Shown here: positions 5,284 to 52,898 of the stretch, piece by piece
Layout of the letters: the number at the start of each line of letters is the position of its first letter
Position numbering within the stretch: position 1 is the stretch's first letter
Source: Candidatus Omnitrophota bacterium
Lineage (GTDB): Bacteria; Omnitrophota; Gorgyraeia; Aquiviventales; Aquiviventaceae
DNA length: 64,000 bases
Assembly (NCBI GenBank): GCA_016209275.1
Contig: JACQWM010000007.1
Location: forward strand, 6,865-70,864
Reading direction: 5' to 3'
Translations under genes and position numbers: made by a program
The notes under the pieces: generated by a model
Database searches by the model: none
What the model was told of the DNA's origin: nothing
The model's input: the letters and a program-made list of their open reading frames with translations, nothing else

Positions 5284-6402
5284 TTACCTTAATACGATGA
5301 TTACGCTCGTAACTGCGATATTGACTAACGAGAGGGGAAACAGAACCTTCCAGCCTAAGTGCATCAGCTGGTCATACCGAAATCGCGGCAGAGTCCATCG
5401 AATCAACATGAAGAACCAGATGAAACCTGAGACTTTGAGCGTCAACGACACGAGTCCGACGGCCACAAAGGCGAGATGCGGCACCGCCACGACCGCGCCC
5501 CACGGGAAATGGAACCCATCGGCGGCGAGCCACGGCGTTTGCCATCCGCCGAAAAACAGCACGGCGGTCAGCGCAGACACCAGCACGATTTCGACGAAGT
5601 CGGTCAAGAAAAACGCGCCGAACTTCATGCCGCTGTATTCGGTGAAGTAACCGATGATTTCCGGTTCGCCTTCCGGCAGATCAAACGGCACGCGCTTGGT
5701 TTCTGCTAAGGCGGCGGTGACAAAAATAATGAACGCCAACGGCTGCGTGATGATCCCCCATAAGGGAATCCATCCGCCGGCGACATGGCTGCCCTGCTTC
5801 AGGATGATCTGGTTCAGATCCAGCGTGCCATAGCAGATCACAACCCCGATGAGCGAAACGCCTAAGGCGATTTCATAGGCCAGCATTTGGGACGCCGCGC
5901 GCAACCCGCCGATCGTGGAGAAGTTGTTGCCCGACACCATGCCGGCGAGGATTACCCCGTAGATGCCGATGGAGGCGAGGGCCAGGACCACGAGCAGCCC
6001 GGCGTTGATGTTGGCGACTTGCAGCGGAATTTCTCGGCCCCACAGTTGCAGCGTCGGCCCGAGAGGAATCGCCGCAAAGGCTACGATGGCGAAAAAGACC
6101 GAGAGAAACGGGGCCAGCGTGTGGAGAAACTTATCTCCCCTCGCTGGAATGATATCTTCCTTGGAGATCATCTTCAGCACATCGGCCAGCGCGTTGATGA
6201 TTCCTAAGCTGCCAAGCTTGCGGATGACCCAGTTGAGCGGCCCAAGCCACCGCCAGGTGAAGTAGGCCCGGTTCGCGCCCACGCGGTCTTGCATCAGCGC
6301 GCTTTGCTTGCGCTCCAGCCAGGTCTGCGCGCCGGCAAGATTCAGCACGCCGCCGAGCACGAGCAGACTGACAATCACTTTAATCCAAAAATCAATCCAC
6401 AT
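5284..6402 (-). CDS. nuoH: NADH-quinone oxidoreductase subunit H
   Basis: 372-aa polytopic protein with the NuoH/ND1 signature (EYSGMKFGAFFLTDF...). Position matches operon order. Confidence 0.88.
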   Translation of the reverse strand: MWIDFWIKVIVSLLVLGGVLNLAGAQTWLERKQSALMQDRVGANRAYFTWRWLGPLNWVIRKLGSLGIINALADVLKMISKEDIIPARGDKFLHTLAPFLSVFFAIVAFAAIPLGPTLQLWGREIPLQVANINAGLLVVLALASIGIYGVILAGMVSGNNFSTIGGLRAASQMLAYEIALGVSLIGVVICYGTLDLNQIILKQGSHVAGGWIPLWGIITQPLAFIIFVTAALAETKRVPFDLPEGEPEIIGYFTEYSGMKFGAFFLTDFVEIVLVSALTAVLFFGGWQTPWLAADGFHFPWGAVVAVPHLAFVAVGLVSLTLKVSGFIWFFMLIRWTLPRFRYDQLMHLGWKVLFPLSLVNIAVTSVIIVLR

Positions 6403-6422
6403 CGTTGGTCACAAGTCACAAG

Positions 6423-8016: not shown

Positions 8017-8091
8017 GCGACACATGACCCATGACTCACGACTCATGACTATTCTGGTTGAAGTCCAGGGTCATGTGTCGTGGGTCGCGAC
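8017..8091. repeat. CATGAC-heptamer imperfect inverted repeat between nuoG and nuoEF, copy 1
   Basis: gcgacacatgacccatgactcacgactcatgact ... gtcatgtgtcg. An 11-bp stem cgacacatgac/gtcatgtgtcg was verified. It shares the core gacacatgacccatgac with the element at 21035-21120. Confidence 0.55.
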
Positions 8092-9882
8092 AGCAACAAC
8101 TGGCGTCGTTTGTGATCCAAGATTGCAACGCTTTTCTCGAACGTGGTATTCAAACTCGTCACGAAATTTTCTGATGTAGCTCTGCACCGGCCAGGCCGCG
8201 GCATCGGCGAAGACGCAGATCGTGCGGCCTTCCATGTTGCCGGCGATATTGAGCAGAATGTCGAGGTCTTGCTGCCGGCCCTGCCCTTTCATGATCCGAT
8301 CCACAATCTTGAACACCCATCCGGTGCCTTCGCGGCACGGCGAGCATTGGCCGCACGATTCATGCGCAAAGAACTTCGAGGCGAACCAGAGCGCGCGGAC
8401 CATGCAGGTGGTGTTGTCCATCGTGATCACACCGGCCGAACCTGCCATCGTGCCGGTGGCGAGCAGCGAGTCAAAATCCATGCGGACATCAATCTCGTCT
8501 GCGCGTAAAATCTTCGCTGAGATACCTCCAGGGATGACGGCTTTAAGTTCGCGCCCTTCGGCCACGCCGCCGGCTGCCGCAATCAGTTCGCGCAGTGTCA
8601 CCCCATGAGAAGCTTCATACAGGCCAGGCTTCTGGACATGACCGCTCATGGAAAACAAGCGCGTGCCACCGGTCTTACCGAACCCGAACTTGGCAAACCA
8701 CTCCCCGCCTTTGCCAATGATCGGCGGCACACAGGCCAGGGTCTCCACATTGTTGATCACCGTCGGCGACGCAAAGAGCCCGGCGATGGCAGGAAAGGGC
8801 GGTTTCAACCGCGGAAAACCTTTCTTGCCTTCAAGGGACTCCAGCAGCGCTGTTTCTTCGCCACAGATATAGGCCCCGGCTCCTCGATGCACGACAATAT
8901 CCAGCGAATAGTCCGTGTTAAAGATACGGTTGCCAATAAAGCCGTACCTTCTCGCATCATCGATGGCCTGCTGCACAATCTGTGCCGGGCGTACATATTC
9001 GCCGCGGATGTAGATGTAGGCTTTGCGGCAGCCGGTGGCGAAGGCGGCGATGATCATGCCCTCAATCAATCGATGAGGATCCCGCTCGATGATGTACCGA
9101 TCCTTCATCGTGCCTGGCTCGCCTTCATCCGCATTGACGACGAGAAACTTCGGTTTCGTCGAGCCCTTGGGAATAAAGCTCCACTTCTTTCCCGCCGGAA
9201 AGCCGGCACCCCCAAGACCGCGTAAATTGGATTTAGTCACTTCGGCAATCACCTGATCCGGCGACAGCTCGGTGAGCGCCTTACGCGCGCTCTGATAGCC
9301 GTCATCACGGACATACGTCTCGATCTTCTCTGAATCTTTAACGCTGAATCGTCTCGAGAGAATCGGTTCGACCAGTCCCACGGTGCCGCGAAACGCATTC
9401 GGGATCTCCGGCAACGACTCTGGTGATTGCACCAACGTGCTGATGATCTCGCGGGTGATGGGCCCCACATACTGATCATTGACCTGCATCATCGGCCCAT
9501 GCTCGCAGGCACAGAGGCACTCGACGGTTGAGAGGGTGAACTTGCCATCCGGGGTCGTTTGGCCTGGTGCGATCCCTAAGCGCTCGGAAATCCCCGCGAC
9601 ACAGCCATCCGCGCCCTTGAGCGCGCAGGCGATGTTGTGGCAGACCTGGACGTGATATTTCCCAACCGGAGTTTGGTGGAACAAGGTGTAAAAGGTGACG
9701 GCTTCGTGGACGTGCGCCGGGGCCACGTCCAGCAGCTGGCCGACCCAGTTTTCGGCGTCGGTTGTAATGTGGCCGAAGCGCTCCTGTATTAAGCGCAACA
9801 CCGGCAGCATCGCCGCCCGCTTCTGCTCGTAGCGAGCGACAATCGCCTCGGTTTCTTGTCGTATTGAGTCCAAAGACTTCAT
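8071..9882 (-). CDS. nuoF: fused NADH-quinone oxidoreductase subunits E (24 kDa, 2Fe-2S) and F (51 kDa, FMN/NADH/4Fe-4S)
   Basis: N-terminal NuoE-type thioredoxin-like domain with CxxxxC...CxxxC cysteines (CHNIACALKG...CLCACEHGP). It runs directly into the NuoF GxGGAGFP...NADEGEPGT...CGQCSPCREG motifs in one 603-aa ORF. Confidence 0.85.
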   Translation of the reverse strand: MKSLDSIRQETEAIVARYEQKRAAMLPVLRLIQERFGHITTDAENWVGQLLDVAPAHVHEAVTFYTLFHQTPVGKYHVQVCHNIACALKGADGCVAGISERLGIAPGQTTPDGKFTLSTVECLCACEHGPMMQVNDQYVGPITREIISTLVQSPESLPEIPNAFRGTVGLVEPILSRRFSVKDSEKIETYVRDDGYQSARKALTELSPDQVIAEVTKSNLRGLGGAGFPAGKKWSFIPKGSTKPKFLVVNADEGEPGTMKDRYIIERDPHRLIEGMIIAAFATGCRKAYIYIRGEYVRPAQIVQQAIDDARRYGFIGNRIFNTDYSLDIVVHRGAGAYICGEETALLESLEGKKGFPRLKPPFPAIAGLFASPTVINNVETLACVPPIIGKGGEWFAKFGFGKTGGTRLFSMSGHVQKPGLYEASHGVTLRELIAAAGGVAEGRELKAVIPGGISAKILRADEIDVRMDFDSLLATGTMAGSAGVITMDNTTCMVRALWFASKFFAHESCGQCSPCREGTGWVFKIVDRIMKGQGRQQDLDILLNIAGNMEGRTICVFADAAAWPVQSYIRKFRDEFEYHVREKRCNLGSQTTPVVAVATHDT

Positions 9883-9891
9883 CTCTCAAGG

Positions 9892-9931
9892 CGATATCAG
9901 ATATGAAATGGCCATTTCATATCTGATATCG
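9892..9931. repeat. perfect 40-nt palindrome CGATATCAGATATGAAATGGCCATTTCATATCTGATATCG (GATATCAGATAT family), copy 1
   Basis: Read directly. It lies between the nuoD stop (9935) and the nuoEF start codon (9882), 9 nt upstream of the ATG. It is AT-rich in a GC-rich genome and identical to the copy at 52899-52938. Confidence 0.9.
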
Positions 9932-9934
9932 TAG

Positions 9935-11284
9935 TTAGCGGTCGAGTTCGCCGCCGATCATGTTGACGGAGCCGAACGTCGGGATGATGTCGGCCAGCAT
10001 ATCGCCGACGATGAGCTCGGGGAGTGCTGCCATAATCGCAAAGCATGGCGGGTGCACGCGCACCCGATACGGCCGATCCCCACCGTCGCTGACCACGTAG
10101 AAGCCGACTTCGCCATTCGCCCCCTCGACCGCGCTGTAGTACTCGCCAGCTGGGGGGCGCAGCCCATGGCCGAGCATGATCAGCTTAAAGTGGTTCATCA
10201 GCCCTTCGATGTTGCCATACGTGTCTTCTTTGGCCGGCAACGCCACCCGGCGCTCGCTGGAATAGACCGCCTCATGCGGCCCGCGCGTTGAGCCCTGCAG
10301 CGTTGGATCCAGCGTCACGCGCACCTGTTTGAATCCGGCCACCTGGCCCATCTTCGCCTCATCCACCATCACATTCGCCGGCAGCACGCGGCCTTCAGAG
10401 TCAATATTGATCGGACCGGCTGGGATGCTCGCCAAGGCCTGCTCGATGATGCGCATGCTCTGCTCCATTTCCTCCATGCGCACCAGATACCGGTCATAGT
10501 TATCGCCATGCTCACCCGTCGGGATATCGAATGACATGCGGTCGTAGACGAAATACGGCTGGCTCTTGCGCGTATCGAGTACGATTCCGCTGCCGCGCAG
10601 AAACGGCCCGGTGATCCCGTAGCTGATGGCGCGCTCTTTCGAGATGATCCCGGTCCCCTGCATCCGATCCGCAAAGATGCGGTTGCGCGTCAACAGCGTG
10701 TCGCACTCTAAAACCACCTTGCGAACCTCTTCAAGGACGCGGCGAGTCCATTCGGCGAATCCCTCGGGTAAATCGGCCTTGACCCCGCCGATGCGGCCAT
10801 AGGAGATCGTCAGGCGGGCTCCGGTGACCGCCTCAACCAGCTCCCACAGCCATTCGCGAGCCTTGATCATGTAGAGAAACACGGTAAAGGCGCCAATTTC
10901 CATCGCTGAAGCGCCAATGCAGGTCAGATGGTCGGTGATGCGGGAGATTTCGCTCATGATGACGCGGATGTATTGGCAGCGCTCGGTCACCTCGATGCCT
11001 AAGAGTCGCTCGACCGCAAGGCAAAACCCGAAATTATTGATCAGCGGCGAGACGTAGTTGAGCCGATCGGTGTACGGCATGACGTTGTTGTACGGCCCGC
11101 GCTCGCTTTCCTTTTCGAACGCGCGATGGAGATACCCGATCTCGACATCGCAGCCCATCACGCGCTCGCCGTCGAGCTCGACGATGAGCTGGACGATCCC
11201 GTGCATGGCCGGATGCGACGGGCCCATATTCAGAAACATGTGTCGAGTCTCAGTGGCCGAGTGGCCAAGTGGCTGGGCGGCCAT
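9935..11284 (-). CDS. nuoD: NADH-quinone oxidoreductase subunit D
   Basis: 449-aa protein with the NuoD/49-kDa signature (NMGPSHPAMHGI... C-terminal HPPCFA..). Fits operon order. Confidence 0.88.
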   Translation of the reverse strand: MAAQPLGHSATETRHMFLNMGPSHPAMHGIVQLIVELDGERVMGCDVEIGYLHRAFEKESERGPYNNVMPYTDRLNYVSPLINNFGFCLAVERLLGIEVTERCQYIRVIMSEISRITDHLTCIGASAMEIGAFTVFLYMIKAREWLWELVEAVTGARLTISYGRIGGVKADLPEGFAEWTRRVLEEVRKVVLECDTLLTRNRIFADRMQGTGIISKERAISYGITGPFLRGSGIVLDTRKSQPYFVYDRMSFDIPTGEHGDNYDRYLVRMEEMEQSMRIIEQALASIPAGPINIDSEGRVLPANVMVDEAKMGQVAGFKQVRVTLDPTLQGSTRGPHEAVYSSERRVALPAKEDTYGNIEGLMNHFKLIMLGHGLRPPAGEYYSAVEGANGEVGFYVVSDGGDRPYRVRVHPPCFAIMAALPELIVGDMLADIIPTFGSVNMIGGELDR

Positions 11285-15013: not shown

Positions 15014-16780
15014 ATGGTAGCCCCATCGACGAAAAAAAGCAGCTTGCCGCGTTTCTTACGCTACGTTCGCCCGTATCGGCTGGTACTCGTAGGTGCCGTC
15101 GGCTTCGGGGTCATCCGCTATCTGATCCCCCTGTCCCTCCCCTGGACGATCAAGATTCTCGTGGATGACGTTCTCAAGCCCTCCGCGGCCATCTCCCACG
15201 GCCGGCTCCATTTGATCATGTGGGGGCTGTGCGCGCTCTTCGCGCTCTATGCCGTGGCCAGCTATTGGCGCTCCTACTTCGCCGGTCTCGCCGGCCACCG
15301 TGTCATCTTCGATCTGCGGCAAGCGCTGTATCTGCACGTGCAGCGCATGAGCCTGAGCTTCTTCGAGCGGCAGAAAATCGGCGCGGTCGTCTCGCGGATG
15401 ACGACAGACATCGCCTCCGCCCAGAACTTCGTCGGGGCGGCCTTCGTCAACACCATCATGGACCTGTCGTGCGTGGTGGTGATTATCGGCTTGCTCTTCT
15501 GGGCGCATCCGAGGCTCGCACTGGTCTCGCTGGCCGTGCTGCCCTTGTACGTCGTGATCACCTACGTGTTGCAAAAGGACATCCGCAAGCAAAGCCGCGT
15601 CATGCATTACCAACTGCAGGAAATGTCCGGGGACTTGCATGAGCAATTCGCAGGCATCTCAACGATCCAGGCGTTCACGCAGGAAGAACACGAAGCGCAA
15701 GGATTTCGCGCGCAAAGCGAAGAATATTTTCAGACCGTGATGAGCAGCGTGAAGCTGCAATCCATCGCGCTGGGCGCCACGGGTTTTCTGACCTCGATCG
15801 GCCCCATCCTCGTGCTGTGGTTCGGCGCCACCGAAGTGTGGGCCAGCCGGCTCACCGTCGGCACCCTGATGGCGTTTTACGGCTACCTCGGGTTGCTCTA
15901 CGCGCCCATCCAACGGCTCACTGAGTTGAATTTGATCCTCGCCAACAGTTTAGCCGCGATGGACCGCATCTTCGAGGTCTTTGACACGTTCTCTGACGTG
16001 CAGGAACGGCCCGGGGCCGTCGCGCTGACACGGGGGCGCGGCGAAATCCGGTTTGAACATCTCAGTTTCAAATACGCCGAGCGGGGCTTCGTCCTCAACA
16101 ACCTCACGCTGACCATCCCAGCCGGCACTACGGCGGCCTTGATCGGTCCCAGCGGGGCCGGAAAATCCACGCTGGTCAAACTCTTGCCCCGCTATTATGA
16201 CGTCACGGAAGGGCGCATTGTGATCGATGGCATCGACATCCGGCAGGCCACGCTGAAATCGCTGCGCGAGCACATTGCCATCGTTTCGCAAGAGCCGATT
16301 TTGTTCAGCGGAACGATCGAGGAAAACTTACGGTACGGGAAACCGCAGGCCGGCGCGGACGCCTTGCGCGCCGCGGCCCGCGCGGCGTTCGCGCACAGCT
16401 TCATCGAACAGTTGCCGAAAGGGTATGACACCGAAATCGGCGAACGCGGTGTGAGGCTCTCCGGCGGGCAGAAACAGCGGCTGGCGATTGCGCGGGCCTT
16501 CCTCAAGGATGCCCCGATCCTCATCCTTGATGAGCCGACGTCAGCGCTCGATGCGGAATCCGAGGCATTGGTCAAACAGGCCCTCACACGCTTGCTGGAA
16601 GGGCGCACCGCGCTGATCATCGCGCATCGGCTCTCGACGATCCAGCACGCGGATGTGGTCGTGGTCCTTGATCAGGGCCGGATTATTGAAGAGGGGCCTC
16701 ACGAGGAATTGTTGCGACGCGCTGGCAGTCTCTACCGGCGCTATGCCGAGCAGCAATTATCGCTGTCGCTGACGTCATAG
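15014..16780 (+). CDS. ABC exporter, fused permease/ATP-binding protein (MsbA-like)
   Basis: Six-TM N-terminal domain followed by Walker A (GPSGAGKST), signature LSGGQKQR and Walker B ILILDEPTSALD. Confidence 0.85.
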   Translation: MVAPSTKKSSLPRFLRYVRPYRLVLVGAVGFGVIRYLIPLSLPWTIKILVDDVLKPSAAISHGRLHLIMWGLCALFALYAVASYWRSYFAGLAGHRVIFDLRQALYLHVQRMSLSFFERQKIGAVVSRMTTDIASAQNFVGAAFVNTIMDLSCVVVIIGLLFWAHPRLALVSLAVLPLYVVITYVLQKDIRKQSRVMHYQLQEMSGDLHEQFAGISTIQAFTQEEHEAQGFRAQSEEYFQTVMSSVKLQSIALGATGFLTSIGPILVLWFGATEVWASRLTVGTLMAFYGYLGLLYAPIQRLTELNLILANSLAAMDRIFEVFDTFSDVQERPGAVALTRGRGEIRFEHLSFKYAERGFVLNNLTLTIPAGTTAALIGPSGAGKSTLVKLLPRYYDVTEGRIVIDGIDIRQATLKSLREHIAIVSQEPILFSGTIEENLRYGKPQAGADALRAAARAAFAHSFIEQLPKGYDTEIGERGVRLSGGQKQRLAIARAFLKDAPILILDEPTSALDAESEALVKQALTRLLEGRTALIIAHRLSTIQHADVVVVLDQGRIIEEGPHEELLRRAGSLYRRYAEQQLSLSLTS

Positions 16781-16784
16781 ATCA

Positions 16785-16814
16785 ATATCAGATATCGAAT
16801 TCGATATCTGATAT
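16785..16814. repeat. 30-nt perfect palindrome ATATCAGATATCGAATTCGATATCTGATAT (GATATCAGATAT family, GAATTC-centre variant)
   Basis: Read directly. It lies between convergent stops of the ABC exporter (16780) and the aquaporin (16818), a position consistent with a bidirectional terminator hairpin. Confidence 0.85.
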
Positions 16815-16817
16815 CGC

Positions 16818-17498
16818 CTAGCGTTTGACGAAAAAGACGTTCGCGGACAACCAAGACGCAGCCAGGCCGCCGAGGATCGGGCCGAGCCAGTAGACCACAT
16901 GCCGATGGTCAAGCGCGCCGCCGAGGAGCGCTGGGCCGAAGGCCCGCGCAGGATTCATGGCCGCCCCGGTGACCGGGCCGCCGAGGAGCATACCACACGC
17001 CAGCACGGCGCCGATCCCCCACCCGGCCGCCGCGGACCCGCCGCCTTGGGAGTTGCCCGCCGCGCCGAAAACGGCGAGCACGAGGAAAAACGTCAAGACC
17101 GCCTCAATCACCAGCGCTTGGCCCACCGTCACCGCGGTGATCGATGGCGCGCCGAGGCGCGCGGCGCGCCACACCTCGCTCGGCAGCAACAGCCGAAGCA
17201 CGAGCGCGGCACTCGCCGCCCCCGCGAGCTGGGAACACACGTACGCCGTCGCCGTCTGACGATCGGTGCGATTGACGCTGAGCATCGCCACGGTCACGGC
17301 GGGGTTGAAATGCCCGCCTGAGACGCGCCCGAGGGCTGCGATCATGGCTCCGAAGACGGCGCCATGCGCGACCGCAATCCCTAACACCCCCAGCGCCCCG
17401 CCGCTCCAATGATTCATGCACACGGCCCCCGCCCCGATGAACACCAGCGCAAATGTTCCGACCCCTTCCGCGATGACCGCAGCGCTCGCGCTCATCAC
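16818..17498 (-). CDS. aquaporin/MIP-family channel
   Basis: Two NPA boxes (GGHFNPAVT, NPARAFGP) and six TM helices. Confidence 0.85.
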   Translation of the reverse strand: MMSASAAVIAEGVGTFALVFIGAGAVCMNHWSGGALGVLGIAVAHGAVFGAMIAALGRVSGGHFNPAVTVAMLSVNRTDRQTATAYVCSQLAGAASAALVLRLLLPSEVWRAARLGAPSITAVTVGQALVIEAVLTFFLVLAVFGAAGNSQGGGSAAAGWGIGAVLACGMLLGGPVTGAAMNPARAFGPALLGGALDHRHVVYWLGPILGGLAASWLSANVFFVKR

Positions 17499-21034: not shown

Positions 21035-21120
21035 GACCCATGACACATGACCCATGACACATGACCAAACGAAACATCTGTTGTCGTGTGTCGTGAGTCA
21101 TAGGTCGTGTGTTATGTGTC
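21035..21120. repeat. CATGAC-heptamer imperfect inverted repeat, copy 2 (moeZ 5' region)
   Basis: Left arm gacccatgacacatgacccatgacacatgacc and right arm gtcgtgtgtcgtgagtcataggtcgtgtgttatgtgtc are about 75% reverse-complementary. Same core as the 8017-8091 element. Confidence 0.55.
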
Positions 21121-21136
21121 AAGGGTCGTCCTTTCG

Positions 21137-33560: not shown

Positions 33561-33890
33561 GGAGTTTTAAGCCCTGTTAAGGGGCATTACGTGAAGTATA
33601 CCTGACGGAGGCAGCGCGAAACAATGCAACAGCAAGATGGGCCAACGGTTAGAACGGTTAGAGCGTCGCGGCCCAGCGGAGAAACCGCAGGAGGATCGTG
33701 GGGTGGCGGATCACAAACGCGGCGAAGCGGGCGGCGGTGATGTCCTCGGCATGGAGCAGCCGGCCCTGCTCATCCAGCACGCCATACGTCTCCAGGCGCC
33801 AGCGCAGCAGCGGGGAGCGCCAGGGAGTGAGGACGTACGGCCAGCTCAGGCGAATGGCGACAAGAAGCATACGAAACCACAGCATAAAAA

Positions 33891-34020
33891 TTACCAATTA
33901 CCAAGCACCAATGACCAAACAATCACCAATTTTCCAATGACCAAATCACCAAACGTTTGGTTATTGGTCATTCAGTCATTGGTCATGGTTTGGTAATTGG
34001 AATTTGGTTATTGGTTATTT
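33891..34020. repeat. CCAA-heptamer inverted-array element (~130 bp imperfect palindrome), copy A
   Basis: Left arm ttaCCAAttaCCAAgcaCCAAtgaCCAAacaatcaCCAAttttCCAAtgaCCAAatcaCCAAacg is mirrored by tTTGGttaTTGGtcattcagtcaTTGGtcatggtTTGGtaaTTGGaatTTGGttaTTGGtta, centred on aaacg|tttgg. About 80% identical to copy B. Confidence 0.75.
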
Positions 34021-34557
34021 TGTTAACAATTTGGTGGCAGCCAAAGCAGCGTCGTAGTTCGGATGGGACGTCACTTCCGGCACGTACTCGACGTAACGCA
34101 CGGTCCCGCTGGCGTCGACCAAGAAGATCGCCCGGCTCAACAGGCGCAGTTCTTTGATGAGCGCGCCATAGGCGGCGCCGAATGACGCATCGCGGTGGTC
34201 CGACGCCGTCATGACGCGACTGATGCCGGCCGCCCCGCACCACCGCTTTTGGGCAAAGGGCAGATCCATGCTGATGGTCACAATCGCCACGTTCGGCAGC
34301 TTGGCCGCTTCTTCGTTGAACCGCCGCGTCTGCGCATCGCACACCGGCGTATCCAGCGAGGGCACCACGCTAATCAAGAGGGGCTTGCCTCTGAACTGCC
34401 CCAGGGTGATGGGCGAGAGATCCTGCCCAAGGAGTTGAAACTCCGGCGCCTTGCCGCCAACGGTGATTTCTGGCCCAAGCAGGGTGAGAGGACCTCCTTT
34501 AAAGGTCACAACACCTCGGCGTTCCTTCCCTAATGCGGTTGCAGTAGCAGTGGCCAT
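34015..34557 (-). CDS. tpx: thiol peroxidase (atypical 2-Cys peroxiredoxin, Tpx)
   Basis: VTFKGGPLTLLG N-terminus and the peroxidatic Cys in SLDTPVCD. Confidence 0.8.
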   Translation of the reverse strand: MATATATALGKERRGVVTFKGGPLTLLGPEITVGGKAPEFQLLGQDLSPITLGQFRGKPLLISVVPSLDTPVCDAQTRRFNEEAAKLPNVAIVTISMDLPFAQKRWCGAAGISRVMTASDHRDASFGAAYGALIKELRLLSRAIFLVDASGTVRYVEYVPEVTSHPNYDAALAATKLLTK

Positions 34558-36337: not shown

Positions 36338-36644
36338 CCGGGTTGGAGGTGGGGCCGGACTTCGTCAGCGGCAGATATTCAGGATGGCGTTTCAGATAGG
36401 CGCCTGAGATATACGAACACGAAGGAATCACCCTGAGTGCGCCGGTTTTCGCATACTCAAAGGCGGCTTTGCACAGCTTCTCAGCGATGCCCTGGCCCCG
36501 AAACACCTCGGGCACGTAGGTGTGATAGAGGTCAAGGTCGTTGCCGGTGCGTCGGTACATCACGCAGGCTTCGTAGCCTTCCATGGTGACACAGAAACGG
36601 CTTCCCCCGTGATCGTGTCGCACCTCGACGGATGGCTCGCTCAT
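36324..36644 (-). CDS. small GNAT-fold N-acetyltransferase (YjdJ-like)
   Basis: 106-aa minimal acetyltransferase domain (…RGQGIAEKLCKAAFEYA…). Confidence 0.55.
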   Translation of the reverse strand: MSEPSVEVRHDHGGSRFCVTMEGYEACVMYRRTGNDLDLYHTYVPEVFRGQGIAEKLCKAAFEYAKTGALRVIPSCSYISGAYLKRHPEYLPLTKSGPTSNPVVSG

Positions 36645-38265
36645 GCTCGTGATCCATTATAATAGAAGGATGGACGCTGTGGAATACCTTCTCGAGGAAA
36701 TTGCGCGCACGCTGCCGGAGAATCGCACCGCCCTTCGGAAGCTCAAAACCGCTGTGGCCTCACAAACGCGCAGGGCGGCCCTCATCCGGAATGACGCGCT
36801 GCTCAGACTCTACCGCCGGCAAGTCGAGCATGGCCAGCGCGCGTCCAATGAGCGGCTCGAGCAGATCTTAACACTCAACGGCATCCGCTCGCAGTCCGGG
36901 ATTGCCACCGTGACCGTGATCACCGAGCCGTACGCCTGCCCTGGCCGCTGCGTGTACTGCCCCACCGAGGCGCGAGCGCCCAAAAGCTACCTCACCAATG
37001 AGCCGGCCGTCATGCGCGCCCTGCGCCATGACTATGATCCGTACCGGCAAGTCACGAGCCGCTTGGAAGCGCTTGAGGAAACCGGCCATGCCACCGAGAA
37101 GATCGAACTCATCATCAAAGGCGGCACGTGGTCGTTTTATCCTCAGGCGTATCAACAGGAATTCATCAAGCGGTGCTTTGATGCCGCCAACACCCTATCG
37201 TCCCCGACACTTGAAGAAGCCCAGCGCGTGAATGAGACCGCGCAGCATCGAATGATTGGCGTGACGATTGAGACGCGGCCGGATTACATCGACGACGCAG
37301 AACTCCGACGATTGCGAAGACTTGGAGTGACGCGGGTGGAATTAGGCGTGCAGAGTCTTGAGGATTCCGTGCTGCGACTCATCGTGCGCGACCACGGAAC
37401 CATCGAAATCCGCCACGCCACGCGACGACTGAAAGATGCCGGGTTTAAAGTGGCGTATCACCTCATGCCGAATCTTCCGGGAGCGACACCAGAGAGCGAT
37501 CTTCAGACGGCGCGTCGGCTCGTTGATGATCCAGCCTACCGGCCGGATGCGATGAAAATCTACCCCTGCGTCGTCATCGACACGGCCGAGCTGTATCAGT
37601 GGTGGCGGCAGGGGCGCTATGCGCCGTATGACGATGAGACGCTCATTGAGCTGCTCATCGCGATCAAACAGCTTGTTCCGCCGTATCTGCGGATTGAACG
37701 AGTGATCCGCGACATTCCCTCCACGTCCATTCGCGCCGGGTGCCTGATCACGAATCTTCGGGAAACAACGCAGCGTCGGATGCGCGCGCAAGAACTGCGC
37801 TGCCGCTGCATCCGCTGCCGGCAAGTGCGCGGAGATACGGAAGGACCGTTTACGCTCATCCGCCGCGATTATGAGGCATCCGATGGAACGGAAATGTTCT
37901 TGAGTTTCGAGGACGTCGCGCGCGATCAGCTCGCTTCACTGCTGCGCCTGCGCATCCCGGGACGGTTGATAGCAGATATCCCGCGACGCGGGATATCTGC
38001 TATCGCCTTGTTTCCGGCACTCGAGGATGCCGCGCTGATCCGAGAGTTGCATTCCTACGGCCACCATGTGCCCCTGCATCGGCGCCGCCAAGGGGCGGTG
38101 CAGCACCGAGGGCTCGGCCAGCAGTTGCTTGAGGAGGCGGAACGCATTGCGCGGGAGGAATTCGGGAAACGCCGGATGGCCGTGATTGCCGGTGTCGGGG
38201 TGCGCGACTACTACCGGCGCTTCGGTTACGAGCTCGAAGACACCTATATGGTCAAAACGCTGTAA
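36643..38265 (+). CDS. elp3: Elp3-like radical SAM / GNAT tRNA-modification acetyltransferase
   Basis: Radical-SAM motif CPGRCVYCP, a central ELP3 domain and a C-terminal GNAT domain. 540 aa. Confidence 0.8.
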   Translation: MLVIHYNRRMDAVEYLLEEIARTLPENRTALRKLKTAVASQTRRAALIRNDALLRLYRRQVEHGQRASNERLEQILTLNGIRSQSGIATVTVITEPYACPGRCVYCPTEARAPKSYLTNEPAVMRALRHDYDPYRQVTSRLEALEETGHATEKIELIIKGGTWSFYPQAYQQEFIKRCFDAANTLSSPTLEEAQRVNETAQHRMIGVTIETRPDYIDDAELRRLRRLGVTRVELGVQSLEDSVLRLIVRDHGTIEIRHATRRLKDAGFKVAYHLMPNLPGATPESDLQTARRLVDDPAYRPDAMKIYPCVVIDTAELYQWWRQGRYAPYDDETLIELLIAIKQLVPPYLRIERVIRDIPSTSIRAGCLITNLRETTQRRMRAQELRCRCIRCRQVRGDTEGPFTLIRRDYEASDGTEMFLSFEDVARDQLASLLRLRIPGRLIADIPRRGISAIALFPALEDAALIRELHSYGHHVPLHRRRQGAVQHRGLGQQLLEEAERIAREEFGKRRMAVIAGVGVRDYYRRFGYELEDTYMVKTL

Positions 38266-38267: not shown

Positions 38268-38301
38268 CGATATCAGATATCGAATTCGATATCTGATATC
38301 G
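38268..38301. repeat. 34-nt perfect palindrome CGATATCAGATATCGAATTCGATATCTGATATCG (GATATCAGATAT family)
   Basis: Read directly. It lies between convergent stops of elp3 (38265) and the ferredoxin gene (38305). Confidence 0.88.
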
Positions 38302-39919: not shown

Positions 39920-39941
39920 TCGCCAACCAAAACGAATTTTC

Positions 39942-39987
39942 GATTGACGATTTATGATTGACGATTAATTATCGACAATCGTCAATC
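39942..39987. promoter_or_regulatory. three copies of an 11-mer GATTGACGATT (two direct, one inverted) in the 5' region of the DUF819 gene
   Basis: cGATTGACGATTtatGATTGACGATTaattatcgacAATCGTCAATCgaa, 17-62 nt upstream of the ATG at 40004. Candidate operator array, read from sequence only. Confidence 0.4.
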
Positions 39988-40003
39988 GAACATCGTAAAT
40001 CCC

Positions 40004-41137: not shown

Positions 41138-41767
41138 ATGCCGGAAGACGCCGACGACTTTGCCGAGGATCGAGAGCGGCTGCTGCTTCGTCACGAGGAT
41201 CGGCTCCATGCTGGGATGCTCCGGCTGCAGCCGAATCTGATCGTCTTCTTTAAAGAACCGCTTGACCGTCGCCTCATCGCCTAAGAGGGCGACGGCGATT
41301 TCGCCATTGTCCACCGTCGGCTGCTGGCGCACGATCACAAAATCTCCCTCCAAAATCCCGGCGTTAATCATGCTGTCGCCCTTGACCTTCAGGGCAAAAT
41401 GCGCCGGCGCTTCAGCAGCCGCGGTCGTCGTCTTCCCGATCCAGCTGCCGTCGACCACCAGATGGCCTTCCACGTTCTGCTGGGCTAAGACGGGTTCACC
41501 CGCCCGCACGCGCCCGACGATCGGCACCCAGAGGGCTTGTTCAAAGGGTGCCACGATATCCAGCAAGCTGATGCTGCGCGCGCGCGGTTCGCGTTTCAAA
41601 AATCCTTTTTTCGCAATGGCATCAAGGTGCGTGGTCACGCCGCGCAGGCTCTTAATCCCCATCGACTTGCCGATCTCACGGATCGTCGGCGGATAGCCCC
41701 GCTGCCTGATCCAGCCGCGGATCGTCTCCAGCACCGTATGTTGTCGCTTGGTGAGTTGCTTTGCCAT
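41129..41767 (-). CDS. lexA: LexA repressor
   Basis: N-terminal winged HTH and C-terminal S24 peptidase with the Ala-Gly cleavage region and Ser/Lys dyad (GDSMINAGI...VKRF). Confidence 0.88.
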   Translation of the reverse strand: MAKQLTKRQHTVLETIRGWIRQRGYPPTIREIGKSMGIKSLRGVTTHLDAIAKKGFLKREPRARSISLLDIVAPFEQALWVPIVGRVRAGEPVLAQQNVEGHLVVDGSWIGKTTTAAAEAPAHFALKVKGDSMINAGILEGDFVIVRQQPTVDNGEIAVALLGDEATVKRFFKEDDQIRLQPEHPSMEPILVTKQQPLSILGKVVGVFRHLP

Positions 41768-41776: not shown

Positions 41777-41868
41777 CGATATCAGATATGATTGAGGCTT
41801 TTGATATCTGATATGGCCTCATCACGAGCGATATCAGATATGAAAAGGGCATTTCATATCTGATATCG
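41777..41868. repeat. two adjacent GATATCAGATAT-family hairpins in the lexA 5' region
   Basis: 41777-41816 is cgatatcagatatga(ttgaggcttt)tgatatctgatatgg (imperfect). 41829-41868 is cgatatcagatatgaaaagggcatttcatatctgatatcg (one central mismatch). The first starts 9 nt upstream of the lexA ATG (41767). Confidence 0.85.
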
Positions 41869-41892
41869 TACTTAAGGATACTAGACGGGCGT

Positions 41893-42636
41893 CTAGATTT
41901 CAAGACCCTTGAGCGTGCCGACGACAGAGCGGAGTTGATCGCGCATGGCGGCCAACTGCTCATCGGACAAGGCGGCTTCAAATAATTTTTGCATGAGGGT
42001 GACTGCGTTCCGCAGCGATCCGGTCGCTTCCCGCAGGCGGCGCCGCTGAAACTGCCGCTCGCTGACCTGGCAGAATAATTGGCTCATGCGGATGGCCGTC
42101 GCCGTATCCGTTGGCACATTGTGCAGCGCGTTGCCGTACGCGAAGAGGGCTTTCTCTGCGTCGCCGGCGACCTCAAAACCGTTGCCGAGCCGCTGCCAAT
42201 ACTCAAACCCCACGCGCGGCTCGGCAAACCGGATGTCATGATCCGGAAGCACGTCAATCCCCCAGGCGTTGAGGATCGGATAACTGAACAGGTGGAGGCT
42301 CAGCATCACCGGCTGGCCGTTGCGAAACACCAGCACCGCGGCCTTGGTCGTCCGGCCCTTCATCCGAGTTGACACAGCCGCGAAGTCGTCAATCGAATGC
42401 AGCTCCTGGTCGTCGACGCGCACGATGATGTCATCGGGCCGCACGTCGGCGAGCGCGGCTTGCGAGTTCTCATCGACGCTGACCACGCGAACACCAACGG
42501 GGCTGTCGGCCACCACCACCCCGCGGAAGACTGACGGCAACTGGCCGGCTTCGCTAGTGAGACAGTGAGAGAGTGAGAGAGTGAGTAAGGGAATGCTGAC
42601 GGTAGCCCGCATGAATCTCCACCAGATCTGTTCCAT
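41893..42636 (-). CDS. secreted PDZ-domain protein with a C-terminal helical (TPR-like) region
   Basis: Signal peptide, PDZ-like segment (GVVVADSPVGVRVVSVDENSQAALADVRPDDIIVRVD) and a helical C-terminus. Last gene of the Bat-like block. Confidence 0.55.
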   Translation of the reverse strand: MEQIWWRFMRATVSIPLLTLSLSHCLTSEAGQLPSVFRGVVVADSPVGVRVVSVDENSQAALADVRPDDIIVRVDDQELHSIDDFAAVSTRMKGRTTKAAVLVFRNGQPVMLSLHLFSYPILNAWGIDVLPDHDIRFAEPRVGFEYWQRLGNGFEVAGDAEKALFAYGNALHNVPTDTATAIRMSQLFCQVSERQFQRRRLREATGSLRNAVTLMQKLFEAALSDEQLAAMRDQLRSVVGTLKGLEI

Positions 42637-42680
42637 CTTTTCCCTATCTCACTGCCTCCCTATCTCGCTTTCTCACTCAG

Positions 42681-45281
42681 TCACAGCATTGTTCCGCCGC
42701 GAAGGGCGATGTCAACGAGCAGCGCGACAATCGCCAGCGGCAGCCACCAGTGGAACATCGGCGCCGTCGTGGTCACCGGAGCGGTCAGCGGGACAAAGGC
42801 GCGATCCGGCGCATTGTAGACGCCGTGGGTTCCGCCGGAAAGCGAGCGCAGCAAGCGTTCTTCGGGTGGCTGGCCGGTGATTTCGCCCTCGGCCGTCGGC
42901 GCCCCGACGCGGATCCAGCGCTTTGTTTCCACCGAAATCTGCCGCTGCTCCGCCGCCGCCTCAGGGGAGGCGATGGTCGAATCAAGCCGCAGCTGATGCC
43001 AGCCTCCAGGCACCTGCTCCAAGGAGGCCTGCCAGCGCCAAGCCCCATGTTGAACGAGGGGGAGAGGGATTTCGCCCGAGCCGTCGCCGGCAAGCAACCG
43101 CGCCTTAGGATCGGTCAGCGCGCCTTCAATGACCAGGTGAGGCGCCGATCCGGTATCATCAACCCACGTGAAGAGTTCCTCGCTCATCCGCGGCCGCATC
43201 GCCCACCGCGCGATGTGCGCCCATGTCGCCTCATAGCCGGGCCAGCGGACCCACTCGGGCGACCAGCGACTGTGCGCATCCGACAGAAACGACACCACCC
43301 GCCCTTTGCCTCGCATCCATCGCGCCAGCAGCGGATCGTCCCCCTTCGCCAAGGCTTCGGGGGACAGGTCCCCCTCGCCGCCGTTGATCGTCAGATCCAC
43401 GCGGGCCTCGGGCTTGGCCGTCGCGGTCAGATAGCCGCGCAGCGCCGGCCACTCCGGAACCTCGGCGAACCAATCCGAGGAGGGCGCGCGCTGCGGACGG
43501 AAATTCCCCTCGGCAAACGGCAGGCGGTCGAGCATCTGCTGGGTATCCCGCGCGAGCAGATGCGGCAGCTCCTCCAGCGAATTCATCTGATAAAACCTGC
43601 CACCGGTGCTGCGGGAGAGGTACTGCAAGTAGTCGGTGTTGATGAACGCCGAGCCGATGCCGATGGTGCTGATCGTGATGCGCTCCTTCTGAAACGCCTG
43701 CAGCATCGTGGCGTAGGACTGCCGCAACTCCGCAAACGGCGTGTTGCCGTCGGAGAGAAGAATGATGTGCTTGATGGTCGCCCCGGTCGCCTCCAGGCGA
43801 GTGGCCGCCGCAGCCAACGCCGGGTACACATCGGTGCCGCCGGTCGCGCGCAGCTTCACCAAGGTGTCCACGAGCGACGCGGTCACCCCTCCGGCCGGCT
43901 GCACCTCGGCCACCACATACGGTTTCGTATCGAACGCCAGCATCCCCACGAGGTCCTCCGGGGAGAGCTGCTTGATGAGGGCCACCGCCGCGCGCTTCGT
44001 GGCGGCGATGCGCGGGCCGAACATGGATTGCGATCGGTCGATCAAGAGGATGACGCAGATGCGCCGCTTGGCTTCACGCAGGCCTTTGGGATCAAAGCGC
44101 ACCGGCAGCAGCTCATCGAGGGGCGAGGCGGTGGCGATTTCATGCGCGAGATCGCCGCCTAAGCCCACCATCAGCAGCCCGCCGCCGAGCTCCACAGAGC
44201 GCCGCAGCTCATCGACTTGGGCCGGGCTCAGTGCGCTCTTGGGCAGATTGTCCAGGAGGACCGCATCGGCGTTGCGCAGCCGATCGGCCGAAAGATCCGC
44301 GGGGCGCATAACGCTGACATCCATCTGCCGTTGCTTCAAGACGGCGGCCAGCGGCGATGGCGCCGAGGGATGCTCGGTGACTAGGATGAGCTGCGGCGGC
44401 CCCTCGATTTCCGTATAGGCCTGCCGCTGCTCGTCCACCCCATCGGATGGAATCCGCAGATGCACGGTCAGCGCCATGGTGCCGCGCTGAATCGCCGGAA
44501 CGGTCACCGTCGCCACCTGCCAGCCGCTCCGCAGGCGCATCGCCTGCTGTTTCACGGTGATACCCTGCAGGGCGATCGCCGCCTGGCCGTCTTTCATCGT
44601 CTGCGCCGCATTGAAGATGACCAGCCGCACCGGGATCGCCCCCCCGCGCTGAACGCTCGGCGGCACGAGCAGATCATCCCACACCGTCTTCGTCTCATTG
44701 AACACCGGAACCGTCACGGGAAACACGCTCAGGCCGCGCCCACGGAGTGCCGCCACGACCATCGCAGTGCTCCCCATCGTTTCGTGCCCATCGCTGAAGA
44801 GCACGAGGCTCGTCCGCCCGGGCGTGCTAGATGCTGCCAGCGCAGACAGCAAGGCCCCCTCAAGATCGGTGCGATCATCCCCCACCGAGGCCTGGCGGAG
44901 CAGCCGCTCAATGACTGAGGGATCGGTCAGCGCCTCGGTGCCCCAGTCCGCGACGGAGGCGGTATCCCGGCCGAACGCCATGACGGCGCGGGAGAGCCGC
45001 GAGGGACGGATCGCTTCCAGCGACGCCAGCCGCCGGGCGATCCACGCGCGTTGGCGCGGATCGATGCTGGCGGATTGGTCCACCAGGTACAGGATCTGGC
45101 GGGGGGCCTCATGGCTCCACCGGCGAGGAAACGCCCACAGCGCTGCGCACACCATGGCGATGGCGAGCAGCCGAGCGCCCACGGCGATGGCTTTGCGGGC
45201 ACCCGCCAGCGGAATCTTCTGACTGAGCCACAGCACCAATCCCATGAGTGCGAGCGAGATCGCCAGATGAGAAAAGTTCAT
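42681..45281 (-). CDS. membrane-anchored double-VWA-domain protein (BatB-like)
   Basis: N-terminal two-TM BatA-type anchor and two MIDAS motifs (DQSAS and DRSQS). 866 aa. ATGA overlap with the upstream BatA-like gene. Confidence 0.75.
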   Translation of the reverse strand: MNFSHLAISLALMGLVLWLSQKIPLAGARKAIAVGARLLAIAMVCAALWAFPRRWSHEAPRQILYLVDQSASIDPRQRAWIARRLASLEAIRPSRLSRAVMAFGRDTASVADWGTEALTDPSVIERLLRQASVGDDRTDLEGALLSALAASSTPGRTSLVLFSDGHETMGSTAMVVAALRGRGLSVFPVTVPVFNETKTVWDDLLVPPSVQRGGAIPVRLVIFNAAQTMKDGQAAIALQGITVKQQAMRLRSGWQVATVTVPAIQRGTMALTVHLRIPSDGVDEQRQAYTEIEGPPQLILVTEHPSAPSPLAAVLKQRQMDVSVMRPADLSADRLRNADAVLLDNLPKSALSPAQVDELRRSVELGGGLLMVGLGGDLAHEIATASPLDELLPVRFDPKGLREAKRRICVILLIDRSQSMFGPRIAATKRAAVALIKQLSPEDLVGMLAFDTKPYVVAEVQPAGGVTASLVDTLVKLRATGGTDVYPALAAAATRLEATGATIKHIILLSDGNTPFAELRQSYATMLQAFQKERITISTIGIGSAFINTDYLQYLSRSTGGRFYQMNSLEELPHLLARDTQQMLDRLPFAEGNFRPQRAPSSDWFAEVPEWPALRGYLTATAKPEARVDLTINGGEGDLSPEALAKGDDPLLARWMRGKGRVVSFLSDAHSRWSPEWVRWPGYEATWAHIARWAMRPRMSEELFTWVDDTGSAPHLVIEGALTDPKARLLAGDGSGEIPLPLVQHGAWRWQASLEQVPGGWHQLRLDSTIASPEAAAEQRQISVETKRWIRVGAPTAEGEITGQPPEERLLRSLSGGTHGVYNAPDRAFVPLTAPVTTTAPMFHWWLPLAIVALLVDIALRGGTML

Positions 45282-46975: not shown

Positions 46976-46985
46976 CTATGGAAAT

Positions 46986-47116
46986 TATCAATAACCAAGC
47001 ACCAATAACCAAACAATGACCAATGTTCCAATGACCGAATTACCAAACGATGTGGTCATTGGTGATTCAGTCATTGGGAATTGTTTGGTGATTGGAATTT
47101 GGTAATTGGTTATTGG
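46986..47116. repeat. CCAA-heptamer inverted-array element, copy B (inside the Bat-like operon)
   Basis: ataaCCAAgcaCCAAtaaCCAAacaatgaCCAAtgttCCAAtgaccgaattaCCAAacg | atgtggtcaTTGGtgattcagtcaTTGGgaattgtTTGGtgaTTGGaatTTGGtaaTTGGttaTTGG. It lies between the GT2/ligase stop (47067) and the batA-like start (46975). Confidence 0.75.
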
Positions 47117-48959: not shown

Positions 48960-49861
48960 TCAAGAAAGCCTCGGTGTGGCAGCACGTTCGTCACAAACGA
49001 GGCGAGAGATTCATCCAGCCGGTGCTGCGCAAAGGCGATGCCGTGCCGCTTGCAAAATCGCGCGAGCAATTCGTTGTGGCCAGTGACCGCCTGCTCAAGC
49101 TCGGCTGTGCTGTACGCGAGCTGATGCGTGTCGCCGGTTTCGGCGTCGACGACCATGCCCGCGCGCGAGAGCTGTGCGGGATGCAATTCTTGCGGGCTGA
49201 TGACCTGGATCACTTTCACCTCGAGATTGCGGATGGCCAGCAGGTGCAGCGCTTGGAAAAATTCCGCCGGGCGCACCATGCCGTCGGTGACCACGATGGC
49301 CTGCCCGCCGTGCATGCGCAGACTGATCGCCGCCCGGCGCACCCACTCGGCCAGCGCCACCGGCCCTCCCAGGACGGCCGCATCGGCGGCTCCCGCCATG
49401 CGCGAGAGCTCCGCCCGCTGATGGAACCAGGGGCTCGAGGCGATTGGCCCAGGCTTGATCCAACTGAAGCGCACGTAATGGCCGTCGCTGATCCCGATGT
49501 AGCCGAGGCTCACCGCTAGGTGGCGCGCGCGGATGAATTTCTCGGCGGTCGGCAACCCCATGGACGGGGTGGCATCCACCAAAATCTCCACCGAGAGGGC
49601 AATTTCCTCTTTATACGTTTTGACGAACAGTTTTTCCAAGCGGGCGTAGAGGCTCCAGTCGATGGCGCGGATGTCATCGCCGGCGTAATACGGCGCATAG
49701 TCGGCAAATTCGATCGAGGAGCCGCGCCGGCTGACGGTGAAGCGCCCCCCGAGCCGGTGCCCTGCCCGCACGGACTTGATGGAGAGCTCCAATGTGTCGA
49801 GCCGATTGATATAGGCTGGCGTGAGCCAATCTATCGTCATGGAGACGCAGCGGTTCCGCAC
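48956..49861 (-). CDS. DUF58-family protein (MoxR partner)
   Basis: DUF58 core (GSSIEFADYAPYYAGDDIRAIDW) and its characteristic position downstream of moxR. Confidence 0.75.
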   Translation of the reverse strand: MRNRCVSMTIDWLTPAYINRLDTLELSIKSVRAGHRLGGRFTVSRRGSSIEFADYAPYYAGDDIRAIDWSLYARLEKLFVKTYKEEIALSVEILVDATPSMGLPTAEKFIRARHLAVSLGYIGISDGHYVRFSWIKPGPIASSPWFHQRAELSRMAGAADAAVLGGPVALAEWVRRAAISLRMHGGQAIVVTDGMVRPAEFFQALHLLAIRNLEVKVIQVISPQELHPAQLSRAGMVVDAETGDTHQLAYSTAELEQAVTGHNELLARFCKRHGIAFAQHRLDESLASFVTNVLPHRGFLE

Positions 49862-49906
49862 ACCAGGTAGCGCAGGTTTAAACCTGCGCTACCTGGTGTG
49901 CGCTAC

Positions 49907-52837: not shown

Positions 52838-52898
52838 AAAACCATGCTACTCTAACTCGTGCCTCTTGACAAGCGACGAGCTGGTTGAAAGAATAGAG

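Follow-up and report, generated by a model that had tools for sequence, protein, structure and literature searches.

Perfect AT-rich palindromes in an Omnitrophota contig: probable REP elements associated with a clade of tyrosine transposases

The subject of this study is a family of AT-rich palindromes in a 64,000-nt stretch of DNA from a Candidatus Omnitrophota bacterium (assembly GCA_016209275.1, contig JACQWM010000007.1, positions 6,865 to 70,864 of the forward strand), which is referred to here as the window. The palindromes are found within the nuo operon, around an Elp3 gene, in front of lexA and an ABC ATPase gene, and between convergent stop codons. We establish here the repeat family, the constraint acting on its hairpin, its turnover among relatives and its link to one clade of transposases, the REP-associated tyrosine transposases (RAYTs; REP, repetitive extragenic palindrome). 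The initial annotation of this DNA had listed six palindromes. All six were recovered at the positions it had given, and the gene contexts that it had named (nuoD/nuoEF, lexA, ABC ATPase and convergent stops) were correct, but its count was low: a core search allowing mismatches, together with an inverted-repeat scan, revealed a seventh copy, and a dedicated search of the window for further hairpins centred on TC-W-GA found no others.

None of the seven copies was assigned a strand. Copy 1 (9892-9931) is a perfect 40-nt palindrome with the centre GAAATGGCCATTTC, located 3 nt from the nuoD stop (9935-9937, minus strand) and 9 nt from the nuoEF ATG (9880-9882). The identical 40-mer recurs 43 kb away, as had been noticed, in the form of copy 7 (52899-52938), where a gap of 4 nt separates it from the downstream ATG (52943) of the ABC ATPase gene in a gldA/F/G-like operon. 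Copy 2 (16783-16816) is centred on GAATTC, has an A/C mismatch at its outermost pair and is enclosed by two convergent stops, one belonging to an ABC exporter (16778-16780) and the other to a MIP channel (16818-16820), 2-4 nt from each. Copy 4 (38268-38301), a perfect 34-nt palindrome that is also GAATTC-centred, is separated from the Elp3 stop by 2 nt and from the convergent ferredoxin stop by 3 nt, and it shares with copy 2 an identical 30-nt core (16785-16814 and 38269-38298), again as first described. Copies 5 (41777-41816) and 6 (41829-41868) are the inner and outer members of a tandem doublet, 12 nt apart, and copy 5 lies 9 nt upstream of the lexA ATG (41765-41767, minus strand); of this pair, previously called degenerate as a whole, both members are present, and in copy 5 the centre is degenerate and the arms contain one mismatch. 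Copy 3 (37968-38004; GATAGCAGATATCCCGCGaCGCGGGATATCTGCTATC) is the one that had been overlooked. It has arms GATAGC...GCTATC and a GC-rich centre, and it is placed in frame within the Elp3 open reading frame (ORF; 36643-38265), where it encodes LIADIPRRGISAI. Only copies 2 and 4 are situated between convergent stops, so the family is not restricted to convergent gene ends; copies 1, 5, 6 and 7 precede genes and fall inside transcripts. A lexA promoter was predicted by promoter scan at 41875-41903 (minus strand; TTGAAA-17-TATCCT, with the -35 hexamer at the 41903 end). Copy 6 starts 6 nt downstream of its -10 hexamer, so that the lexA transcript would begin with it. The predicted promoter of the gldA-like ABC operon (52866-52894, plus strand; TTGACA-17-AAGAAT, 10 of 12 matches) ends 4 nt before copy 7.

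The core GATATCAGATAT was matched 31 times on both strands of the window with up to two mismatches, against 1.9 +/- 1.3 times in 100 dinucleotide shuffles (maximum 8). A total of 32 GATATC sites were found, 17 of them inside the elements, where base composition predicts 8.2 for the whole window. The elements have a GC content of 32-35% (copy 3: 54%) against 61.7% for the window, a measured value that replaces the earlier figure of about 64%, and six of the seven copies fall in intergenic DNA, which makes up 4.8% of the 64 kb. An Rfam scan of the whole window at gathering thresholds gave no match, neither the pattern nor the 54-nt region was matched in viral contigs, phage genomes or plasmids, and a literature search for the repeat sequence itself returned only chance matches in eukaryotic papers.

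Each copy is a single hairpin of 34-40 nt. In the fixed lower stem, CGATATC-A-GATAT pairs with ATATC-T-GATATCG; each arm consists of two GATATCW heptamers and is centred on TC-W-GA. The centres between the arms vary in length (8, 13 and 14 nt in the window, 5-16 nt in relatives) and in sequence, yet they remain self-complementary, both in the window (GAAATGGCCATTTC, CGAATTCG and CCCGCGaCGCGGG) and in relatives (CAGCCAAtcTTGGCTG, CATTTagaaAAATG and CGCCctcaGGCG). Summed over 28 distinct elements, pairing within the centres adds 90 contiguous base pairs, compared with a mean of 11.9 and a maximum of 25 in 2000 shuffles. The arm changes of copy 3 are matched on both sides (GATAGC/GCTATC), and the central W is A...T in the window versus T...A at the orthologous site of a related contig, L004 (L numbers denote the loci collected for comparison). 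Because unrelated centres still pair, arm changes are matched and the W position is swapped as a pair, the hairpin itself appears to be the selected feature. As RNA, the hairpins are predicted to fold with -17 to -34 kcal/mol (z -5.6 to -9.2 versus shuffles; copy 1, -24 kcal/mol and z -9.2; copy 3, -34.4 kcal/mol and z -8.1), and the lexA doublet of copies 5 and 6 can fold as a composite structure of -40.9 kcal/mol. Immediately beyond the arms, 70 of 74 distinct outward flanks begin with G. Longer elements of at least 93 nt were observed in the Planctomycetia metagenome-assembled genome (MAG) CAZYRM01 (L005, L009, L018, L047, L054 and others), with arms of 4-5 heptamers (ATATCTGA-GAGCTGA-TATCTGA-TATCAGA-TAT) and a co-varying GC-rich centre of about 28 nt.

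Over the nuo operon, the window is 71-78% identical in nucleotide sequence to its nearest relatives in the species-representative collection, which are contigs labelled Planctomycetales. In the genome set of that collection, the pattern GATATCAGATAT-N0-30-ATATCTGATATC was found at 91 loci concentrated in few MAGs, including at least 20 in one Planctomycetia MAG and 7 and 4 in two Planctomycetales MAGs, and the 38-mer subfamily of the window is present in 12 metagenome contigs. The centre subfamily differs genome by genome, each genome having its own. Comparison of syntenic contigs for presence and absence, which the initial annotation had proposed, revealed both filled and empty orthologous sites. 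At the Elp3-ferredoxin site, occupied by copy 4 in the window, the palindrome is absent from L092 (no spacer, the stops overlapping), L095 (a classical GC-rich terminator) and L093 (a TGTGTAA/TTACACA heptamer hairpin plus a terminator). The PDZ-lexA spacer, which holds copies 5 and 6 in the window, has no palindrome in L092 and L095. Conversely, L004 carries a copy between nuoB and nuoC, where the site is empty in the window, and at the site of copy 2 it has a GATATC-type palindrome with the T...A swap and a different loop. Another 63 kb from four further syntenic contigs contained zero copies. Taken together, identical 40-mers at distant sites, genome-specific centre subfamilies, and filled and empty sites indicate copy-paste behaviour.

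Seven nuoD-nuoEF junctions were scored, those of the window and six relatives; L095, whose contig has the NuoEF match P0197, was left out. The 40-mer is identical in the window and L103, with flanking coding DNA only 82% and 69% identical, and this perfect identity points to strong constraint or ongoing homogenisation. L066 (flank GTAGTTAGC) was considered as the orthologue of copy 1 and set aside, the true orthologous copy being in L103. At the same junction L004 and L111 have hairpins of other heptamers, L109 has an unrelated 382-nt GC-rich insert, and L110 and L112 have essentially no spacer (2-3 nt). Since the hairpin is missing in several relatives, it is not required for the operon, and the regulatory role in the nuo operon that the initial annotation had proposed would not be a conserved one. 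Two side observations concern this junction. The L109 insert is called as a 129-aa ORF (9615-10004) with no Pfam match and no relation to the heptamer hairpins, next to a NuoEF that is 82% identical. In the window, the NuoE-NuoF fusion ORF (8071-9882, minus strand) encodes 603 aa, similar to homologues of about 600 aa, while the NCBI protein P0174 has only 472 aa, so the deposited NuoEF annotation seems to start at an internal codon.

Copy 3 is located in an Elp3 loop between LRLRIP and PALEGAALIRELH, and the length of this loop varies among homologues (alignment A1). A second length-variable region was seen at columns 190-250 of the same alignment (around window residue 190), where many relatives have 10-60 additional low-complexity residues (GSRLKAxG...); these possibly come from in-frame insertions of other repeats, and the window has none there.

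To search for a protein recurring beside the palindromes, the ORFs of the 91 genome loci were first compared all-against-all, and nothing recurrent beyond ABC transporters was found. This empty comparison at first suggested that there was no REPtron, and a RAYT surfaced only when E. coli RayT was used as the probe. A phmmer search with this protein against the six-frame ORFs of 935 kb of loci, metagenome loci included, identified one family (L107, L101 and L106). The L107 gene (5668-6276) encodes 202 aa with HUH (HVH) and tyrosine (YVHRNP) motifs. It matches Pfam Y1_Tnp (PF01797) at 56.5 bits (cut-off 23) and the NCBIfam equivalog NF047646, 'REP-associated tyrosine transposase', at 92 bits (cut-off 80), and it fails the IS200 model at 18 bits (cut-off 55). 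It is flanked by palindromes at 5553-5592, 75 nt upstream, and at 6242-6281, the latter encoding the last 11 codons of the RAYT and its stop. The arrangement is the same in L101 and L106; all of these are related metagenome contigs and none is the window. Of the 'REP/MITE-like dispersed element' proposed in the initial annotation (MITE stands for miniature inverted-repeat transposable element), the REP half is therefore right and has become specific, because the repeats flank a RAYT gene in related contigs.

More distant RAYT homologues carry related repeats. The RAYT of L115/L116 (76% identical) has doublets of CGATATCWGATATCG on both sides (core GATATC-W-GATATC), that of L117 (62%) has GGTATC-W-GATACC, that of L118 (61%) has GGATC-W-GATCY and that of L119, from Rubeoparvulum massiliense (45%), has GGGGTC-W-GACCCC. 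The repeat core thus changes with RAYT divergence, and the TC-W-GA at the arm centre is constant in all. The 3' repeat runs into the gene at each of the RAYT loci examined and supplies the final residues and the stop codon (for example ...QSISDIETAFDI*), as at 6242-6281 in L107, 713-752 in L115, about 7305-7345 in L117 and about 3530-3580 in L119; the transposase thus owes its C-terminus to its own target repeat. In a Clostridiales MAG with dispersed GATATCAGATAT-armed elements, a half-arm precedes a RAYT fragment by 80 nt. REPtron architecture and the co-variation of repeat and transposase are the features that define REP/RAYT systems (PMC3733652).

We consider it probable, at roughly 0.8, that the palindromes are REP elements of one RAYT clade (HUH/Y1, IS200/IS605 superfamily), with the mobilisation and the effects on expression outlined below. 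What has been found is a previously undescribed REP family, that is, a kind of bacterial repeat already known, and no new regulatory system. By analogy with studied RAYTs (PMC3733652), the transposase would recognise the lower stem of the folded hairpin on single-stranded DNA and would cut and join next to it, a reaction that could copy single units or tandem doublets to new sites. The upper stem and loop would be free to change as long as pairing is kept. Copies would build up in the few nucleotides between genes, because a genome that is 95% coding tolerates insertions only there, and would rarely enter in frame into a variable protein loop. Once inserted, the elements would be transcribed as very stable stem-loops. 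In E. coli, REPs less than 16 nt from a stop codon stall terminating ribosomes, and the gene upstream is expressed at a lower level (Liang, Rudd and Deutscher 2015, as quoted in PMC12306157). If the same applies here, copies 1, 2 and 4, which lie 2-4 nt from stops (nuoD, ABC exporter/MIP channel and Elp3/ferredoxin), should stall ribosomes or protect 3' ends. Copies 6 and 7 begin where transcription of lexA and of the ABC operon is predicted to start, and would form 5'-terminal hairpins followed by a leader of 4-9 nt, and the nuoD-nuoEF copy could couple or uncouple the translation of these two genes.

Several observations weigh against this interpretation. The canonical tag of the REP superfamily is absent, GTAG being found in 4 and CGTC in 3 of the 74 distinct flanks. 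The palindromes are perfect, whereas studied REPs are imperfect, and in E. coli strengthening the palindrome abolished cleavage by the RAYT (PMC3733652). Neither a RAYT nor any other transposase gene is present in the 64-kb window, and no NCBI-sourced RAYT above 62% identity was among the homologues returned, for which reason the window's own genome may lack the gene or may have it on an unbinned contig. In L031, from Candidatus Buchananbacteria of the candidate phyla radiation, a RAYT-like gene (523-1251) is flanked by a direct repeat, TCGACTCCCGAAGTTRAATAAT, and a GATATC palindrome lies 350 nt downstream of it within another ORF. Filled and empty sites are too diverged (69-82% identity) for a target-site signature or excision footprint to be read. 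As for expression, the nuo junction hairpin is missing in several relatives, and all of the effects named above are ones that we infer.

The arms of the palindromes share a 7-nt period with much of the surrounding DNA. At lag 7, the autocorrelation of the window's intergenic DNA is 0.32 against about 0.25, and still 0.306 once the palindromes are taken out; in coding DNA the sole period is 3, and over all collected loci 270 period-7 arrays were found versus 53 for period 6 or period 8. Tandem Repeats Finder detected many other period-7 arrays in the window, mostly as inverted pairs. Heptanucleotide repeats are known to be in unexplained excess among bacteria (Mrazek 2007, as cited in PMC4679880); TAACTGA repeats abut start codons, and TATCTGA is listed as stem-loop forming (MacGregor 2015, PMC4679880). 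It is conceivable, and in our judgement unlikely, that the REPs are the best-conserved members of a 7-nt-periodic intergenic vocabulary of PVC-group (Planctomycetes-Verrucomicrobia-Chlamydiae) bacteria poor in Shine-Dalgarno sequences, recruited as expression modules that serve as 5' caps, as stall or coupling devices and as sources of start and stop codons in three frames. If this were true, there would be 5'-terminal caps exactly at transcription starts before near-leaderless genes and stalling or coupling devices 2-4 nt past stops, and the TC-W-GA core of RAYT repeats in several phyla, with its resemblance to TAACTGA, would point to one ancient recognition system behind the heptanucleotide excess.

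Distinctly unlikely, in our view, is an origin of the elements as heptanucleotide simple-sequence repeats of the short tandemly repeated repetitive (STRR), Beggiatoa TAACTGA or Xanthomonas GGGAATC type, arising by slippage and fold-back with no transposase. Arms made of two tandem GATATCW heptamers, arms of 4-5 units in the Planctomycetia MAG, the general lag-7 signal and period-7 excess, and the many other heptamer hairpins of the window would all be accounted for in this way, and inverted heptamer arrays have been described in Xanthomonas, where GGGAATC forms 70-75 inverted-orientation pairs per genome (Rehm 2015, PMC4692102). Slippage explains arrays, but not the dispersal of an identical unit with a non-repetitive centre, nor the RAYT flanking, nor the change of the core with RAYT divergence. 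The two ideas may be compatible, in that slippage could lengthen the arms of a RAYT-mobilised unit. A further proposal, that inverted heptamer arrays arise by symmetric addition at a double-strand break, was speculative and was dropped.

The palindromes could instead be locally evolved RNA elements (3'-end stabilisers, bidirectional terminators or decay barriers inside operons), selected site by site and immobile. The stem-loops are indeed very stable, two copies lie between convergent genes, some kind of hairpin is found at nuoD-nuoEF in four of the seven scored genomes, and a relative has a classical GC-rich terminator instead at the Elp3-ferredoxin site. Such elements would leave unexplained why unrelated loci hold identical 40-mers, why the same 38-mer turns up in 12 other contigs, why centre subfamilies are genome-specific and why the repeats flank a RAYT gene, and several relatives have no spacer at the same junctions. 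The terminator-like character ascribed earlier to the copies between convergent stops is weak, since the stems are AT-rich (32-35% GC) and no proper U-tract follows them; most copies are without a U-tract, and a GC-rich stem with a U-tract on the strand of the upstream gene, as expected of an intrinsic terminator, was not found. Terminator scans gave no hit at lexA and flagged only copy 7, on the strand where no gene ends. We therefore regard local RNA elements as improbable.

A 'recurring operator' had been suggested as well, in which a dimeric factor (LexA or else a global regulator) would bind the palindromes and control lexA, nuoEF and the ABC operon. Three copies lie directly against start codons, a tandem pair precedes lexA, which is normally autoregulated, and each arm, CGATATCWGATATCG, is a 15-bp near-palindrome. 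Against an operator, the distance from arm to arm is not fixed (8-16 nt within this lineage), the conserved pairing of the centre is unneeded for a protein site, copies are located between convergent stops and inside the Elp3 coding region, and the REPs at lexA are downstream of its promoter. lexA, moreover, has a different palindrome: CTAGACGGGCGTCTAG (41881-41896, in the minus-strand promoter) occupies the 17-nt spacer between the -35 and -10 hexamers. The layout TTGMAA-(T[AC][GC]AGACGNNCGTCTAG)-TAYNCT has been kept in front of lexA by L092 and L095, both without REPs there, and the counterparts of the palindrome, TAGACAGCCGTCTAG in L092 and CCAGACGTTCGTCTAG in L095, have the form CTAGACG-N2-3-CGTCTAG. 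CTAGACGGGCGTCTAG is a candidate SOS/LexA box for this lineage and probably the LexA operator. The tandem copies 5 and 6 had been tried for that role and were rejected, because L092 and L095 are without them yet keep this other palindrome in the promoter spacer. We consider the operator hypothesis very improbable. In L092 the lexA ATG directly follows the -10 hexamer, which suggests a leaderless lexA in that genome and a leaderless ancestor.

To a MITE of a DDE-transposase element, finally, we give practically no credence: terminal inverted symmetry, dispersal and presence or absence between relatives would suit it, but at 34-40 nt the units are below the usual size of MITEs (reportedly above 100 nt in general), the whole unit is a single hairpin, no target-site duplication is visible in the flanks, no DDE transposase recurs beside the repeats in about 600 kb of flanks, and the gene that the repeats do flank is a Y1 transposase, the RAYT.

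Other repeats were recorded in the window. Inverted heptamer pairs (GACNCAT/ATGNGTC, GATTGAC/GTCAATC and GGATGGT...AATCGAA) are found among the intergenic arrays at 8019-8085, 21035-21130, 39941-40001, 45296-45364, 6403-6422 and 54682-54710, and there are two direct arrays between a stop and the next ATG, CTTGTGA x2 and GCAGATA x3-4, the latter ending 5 nt before the ATG at 54716. The arrays of ATGNGTC (minus sense) at 8019-8050 and 21035-21065, at the 5' ends of nuoG and of a ThiF/rhodanese gene, place an ATG or GTG every 7 nt; since this provides starts in every frame, it is uncertain where the two genes truly begin. A second dispersed family consists of homologous, imperfect hairpins of about 130 nt built of CCAATNA/TTGGTNA heptamers (33887-34021 and 46985-47116); TTGGTCA is presumably also the unit of cyanobacterial STRR2. 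A perfect 46-bp GC-rich palindrome containing GTAG (CGCACACCAGGTAGCGCAGGTTT/AAACCTGCGCTACCTGGTGTGCG; 49857-49902) is located in the gap between a MoxR-like ATPase and a DUF58 gene, overlapping the DUF58 start, and may belong to another REP family. Around the start of the PDZ-domain gene, AGTGAGAG 8-mers (x3.8) and their approximate complement (CTCTCACT-like) are found at 42556-42585 and 42640-42690. At 58849-60111 (minus strand) and 59183-59986, long tandem repeats of 21 nt and 63 nt lie in a 420-aa ORF without a Pfam match, whose coding strand is ambiguous because an overlapping plus-strand ORF has a higher GC3.

Identification of the palindromes as REP elements would bring uncultured bacteria of the PVC group (labelled Omnitrophica or Planctomycetales) into REP-RAYT biology. 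The series of cores that change with the transposase while TC-W-GA is kept should be useful for understanding how RAYTs read hairpins, and one member of the series is available in a cultured Firmicute, Rubeoparvulum massiliense. For annotation, the results are a warning that palindromes of this kind are not operators or terminators and that they can add residues to proteins, as in Elp3 and at the RAYT C-terminus. Most RAYT contigs are 1-2 kb long, so the repeats appear to break assemblies. Natural test cases are provided by the places where a strong hairpin stands 3 nt past a stop, precedes a start codon by 4-9 nt or coincides with a transcription start. Part, at least, of the heptanucleotide-repeat excess in bacterial intergenic DNA may be RAYT-related.

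Among known systems, Rho-independent terminators are similar in that a stem-loop comes straight after a stop codon, and copy 4 is then followed by CUUUU on one strand; the repeats differ from them in having AT-rich stems of 15-18 bp, mostly no run of five or more U, and a unit that is also found in 5' leaders and inside a gene. The Rickettsia palindromic elements (RPEs) and other intragenic REPs resemble copy 3, which is placed in the Elp3 coding sequence with the frame kept and in a length-variable loop, but RPEs are 100-150 nt long with a CGTC tag, whereas here a single 37-nt copy gives a net gain of about 7 residues. Heptanucleotide repeats (TAACTGA of Beggiatoaceae, cyanobacteria and Bacteroidetes, GGGAATC of Xanthomonas, and the STRR of Calothrix and Nostoc) share the 7-nt period, the intergenic location and a patchy distribution across phyla, often end a few nucleotides from a start codon without a Shine-Dalgarno sequence, and include in TAACTGA a single-base variant of the right-arm heptamer TATCTGA. 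They are mostly direct arrays of 2-40 units, and we know of no transposase for them, whereas the repeats described here have two units per arm, are always inverted around a non-repetitive centre and are linked to a RAYT. The systems most closely comparable are those of REP/REPIN and RAYT (E. coli REP-RayT, Pseudomonas REPINs, Stenotrophomonas SMAG; REPtrons). In contrast to these, the present family has no GTAG/CGTC tag, consists of perfect AT-rich palindromes in a GC-rich genome with TC-W-GA at the centre of their two-heptamer arms, has a 3' repeat that provides the final codons and stop of the RAYT, and belongs to an uncultured PVC-group host. What it has in common with them are short (20-40 nt) multicopy intergenic palindromes, sites after stop codons and within operons, singles and doublets, occasional copies inside genes (PMC3733652), and a repeat-flanked RAYT gene which passes the NCBIfam cut-off and whose repeat is specific to the RAYT lineage.

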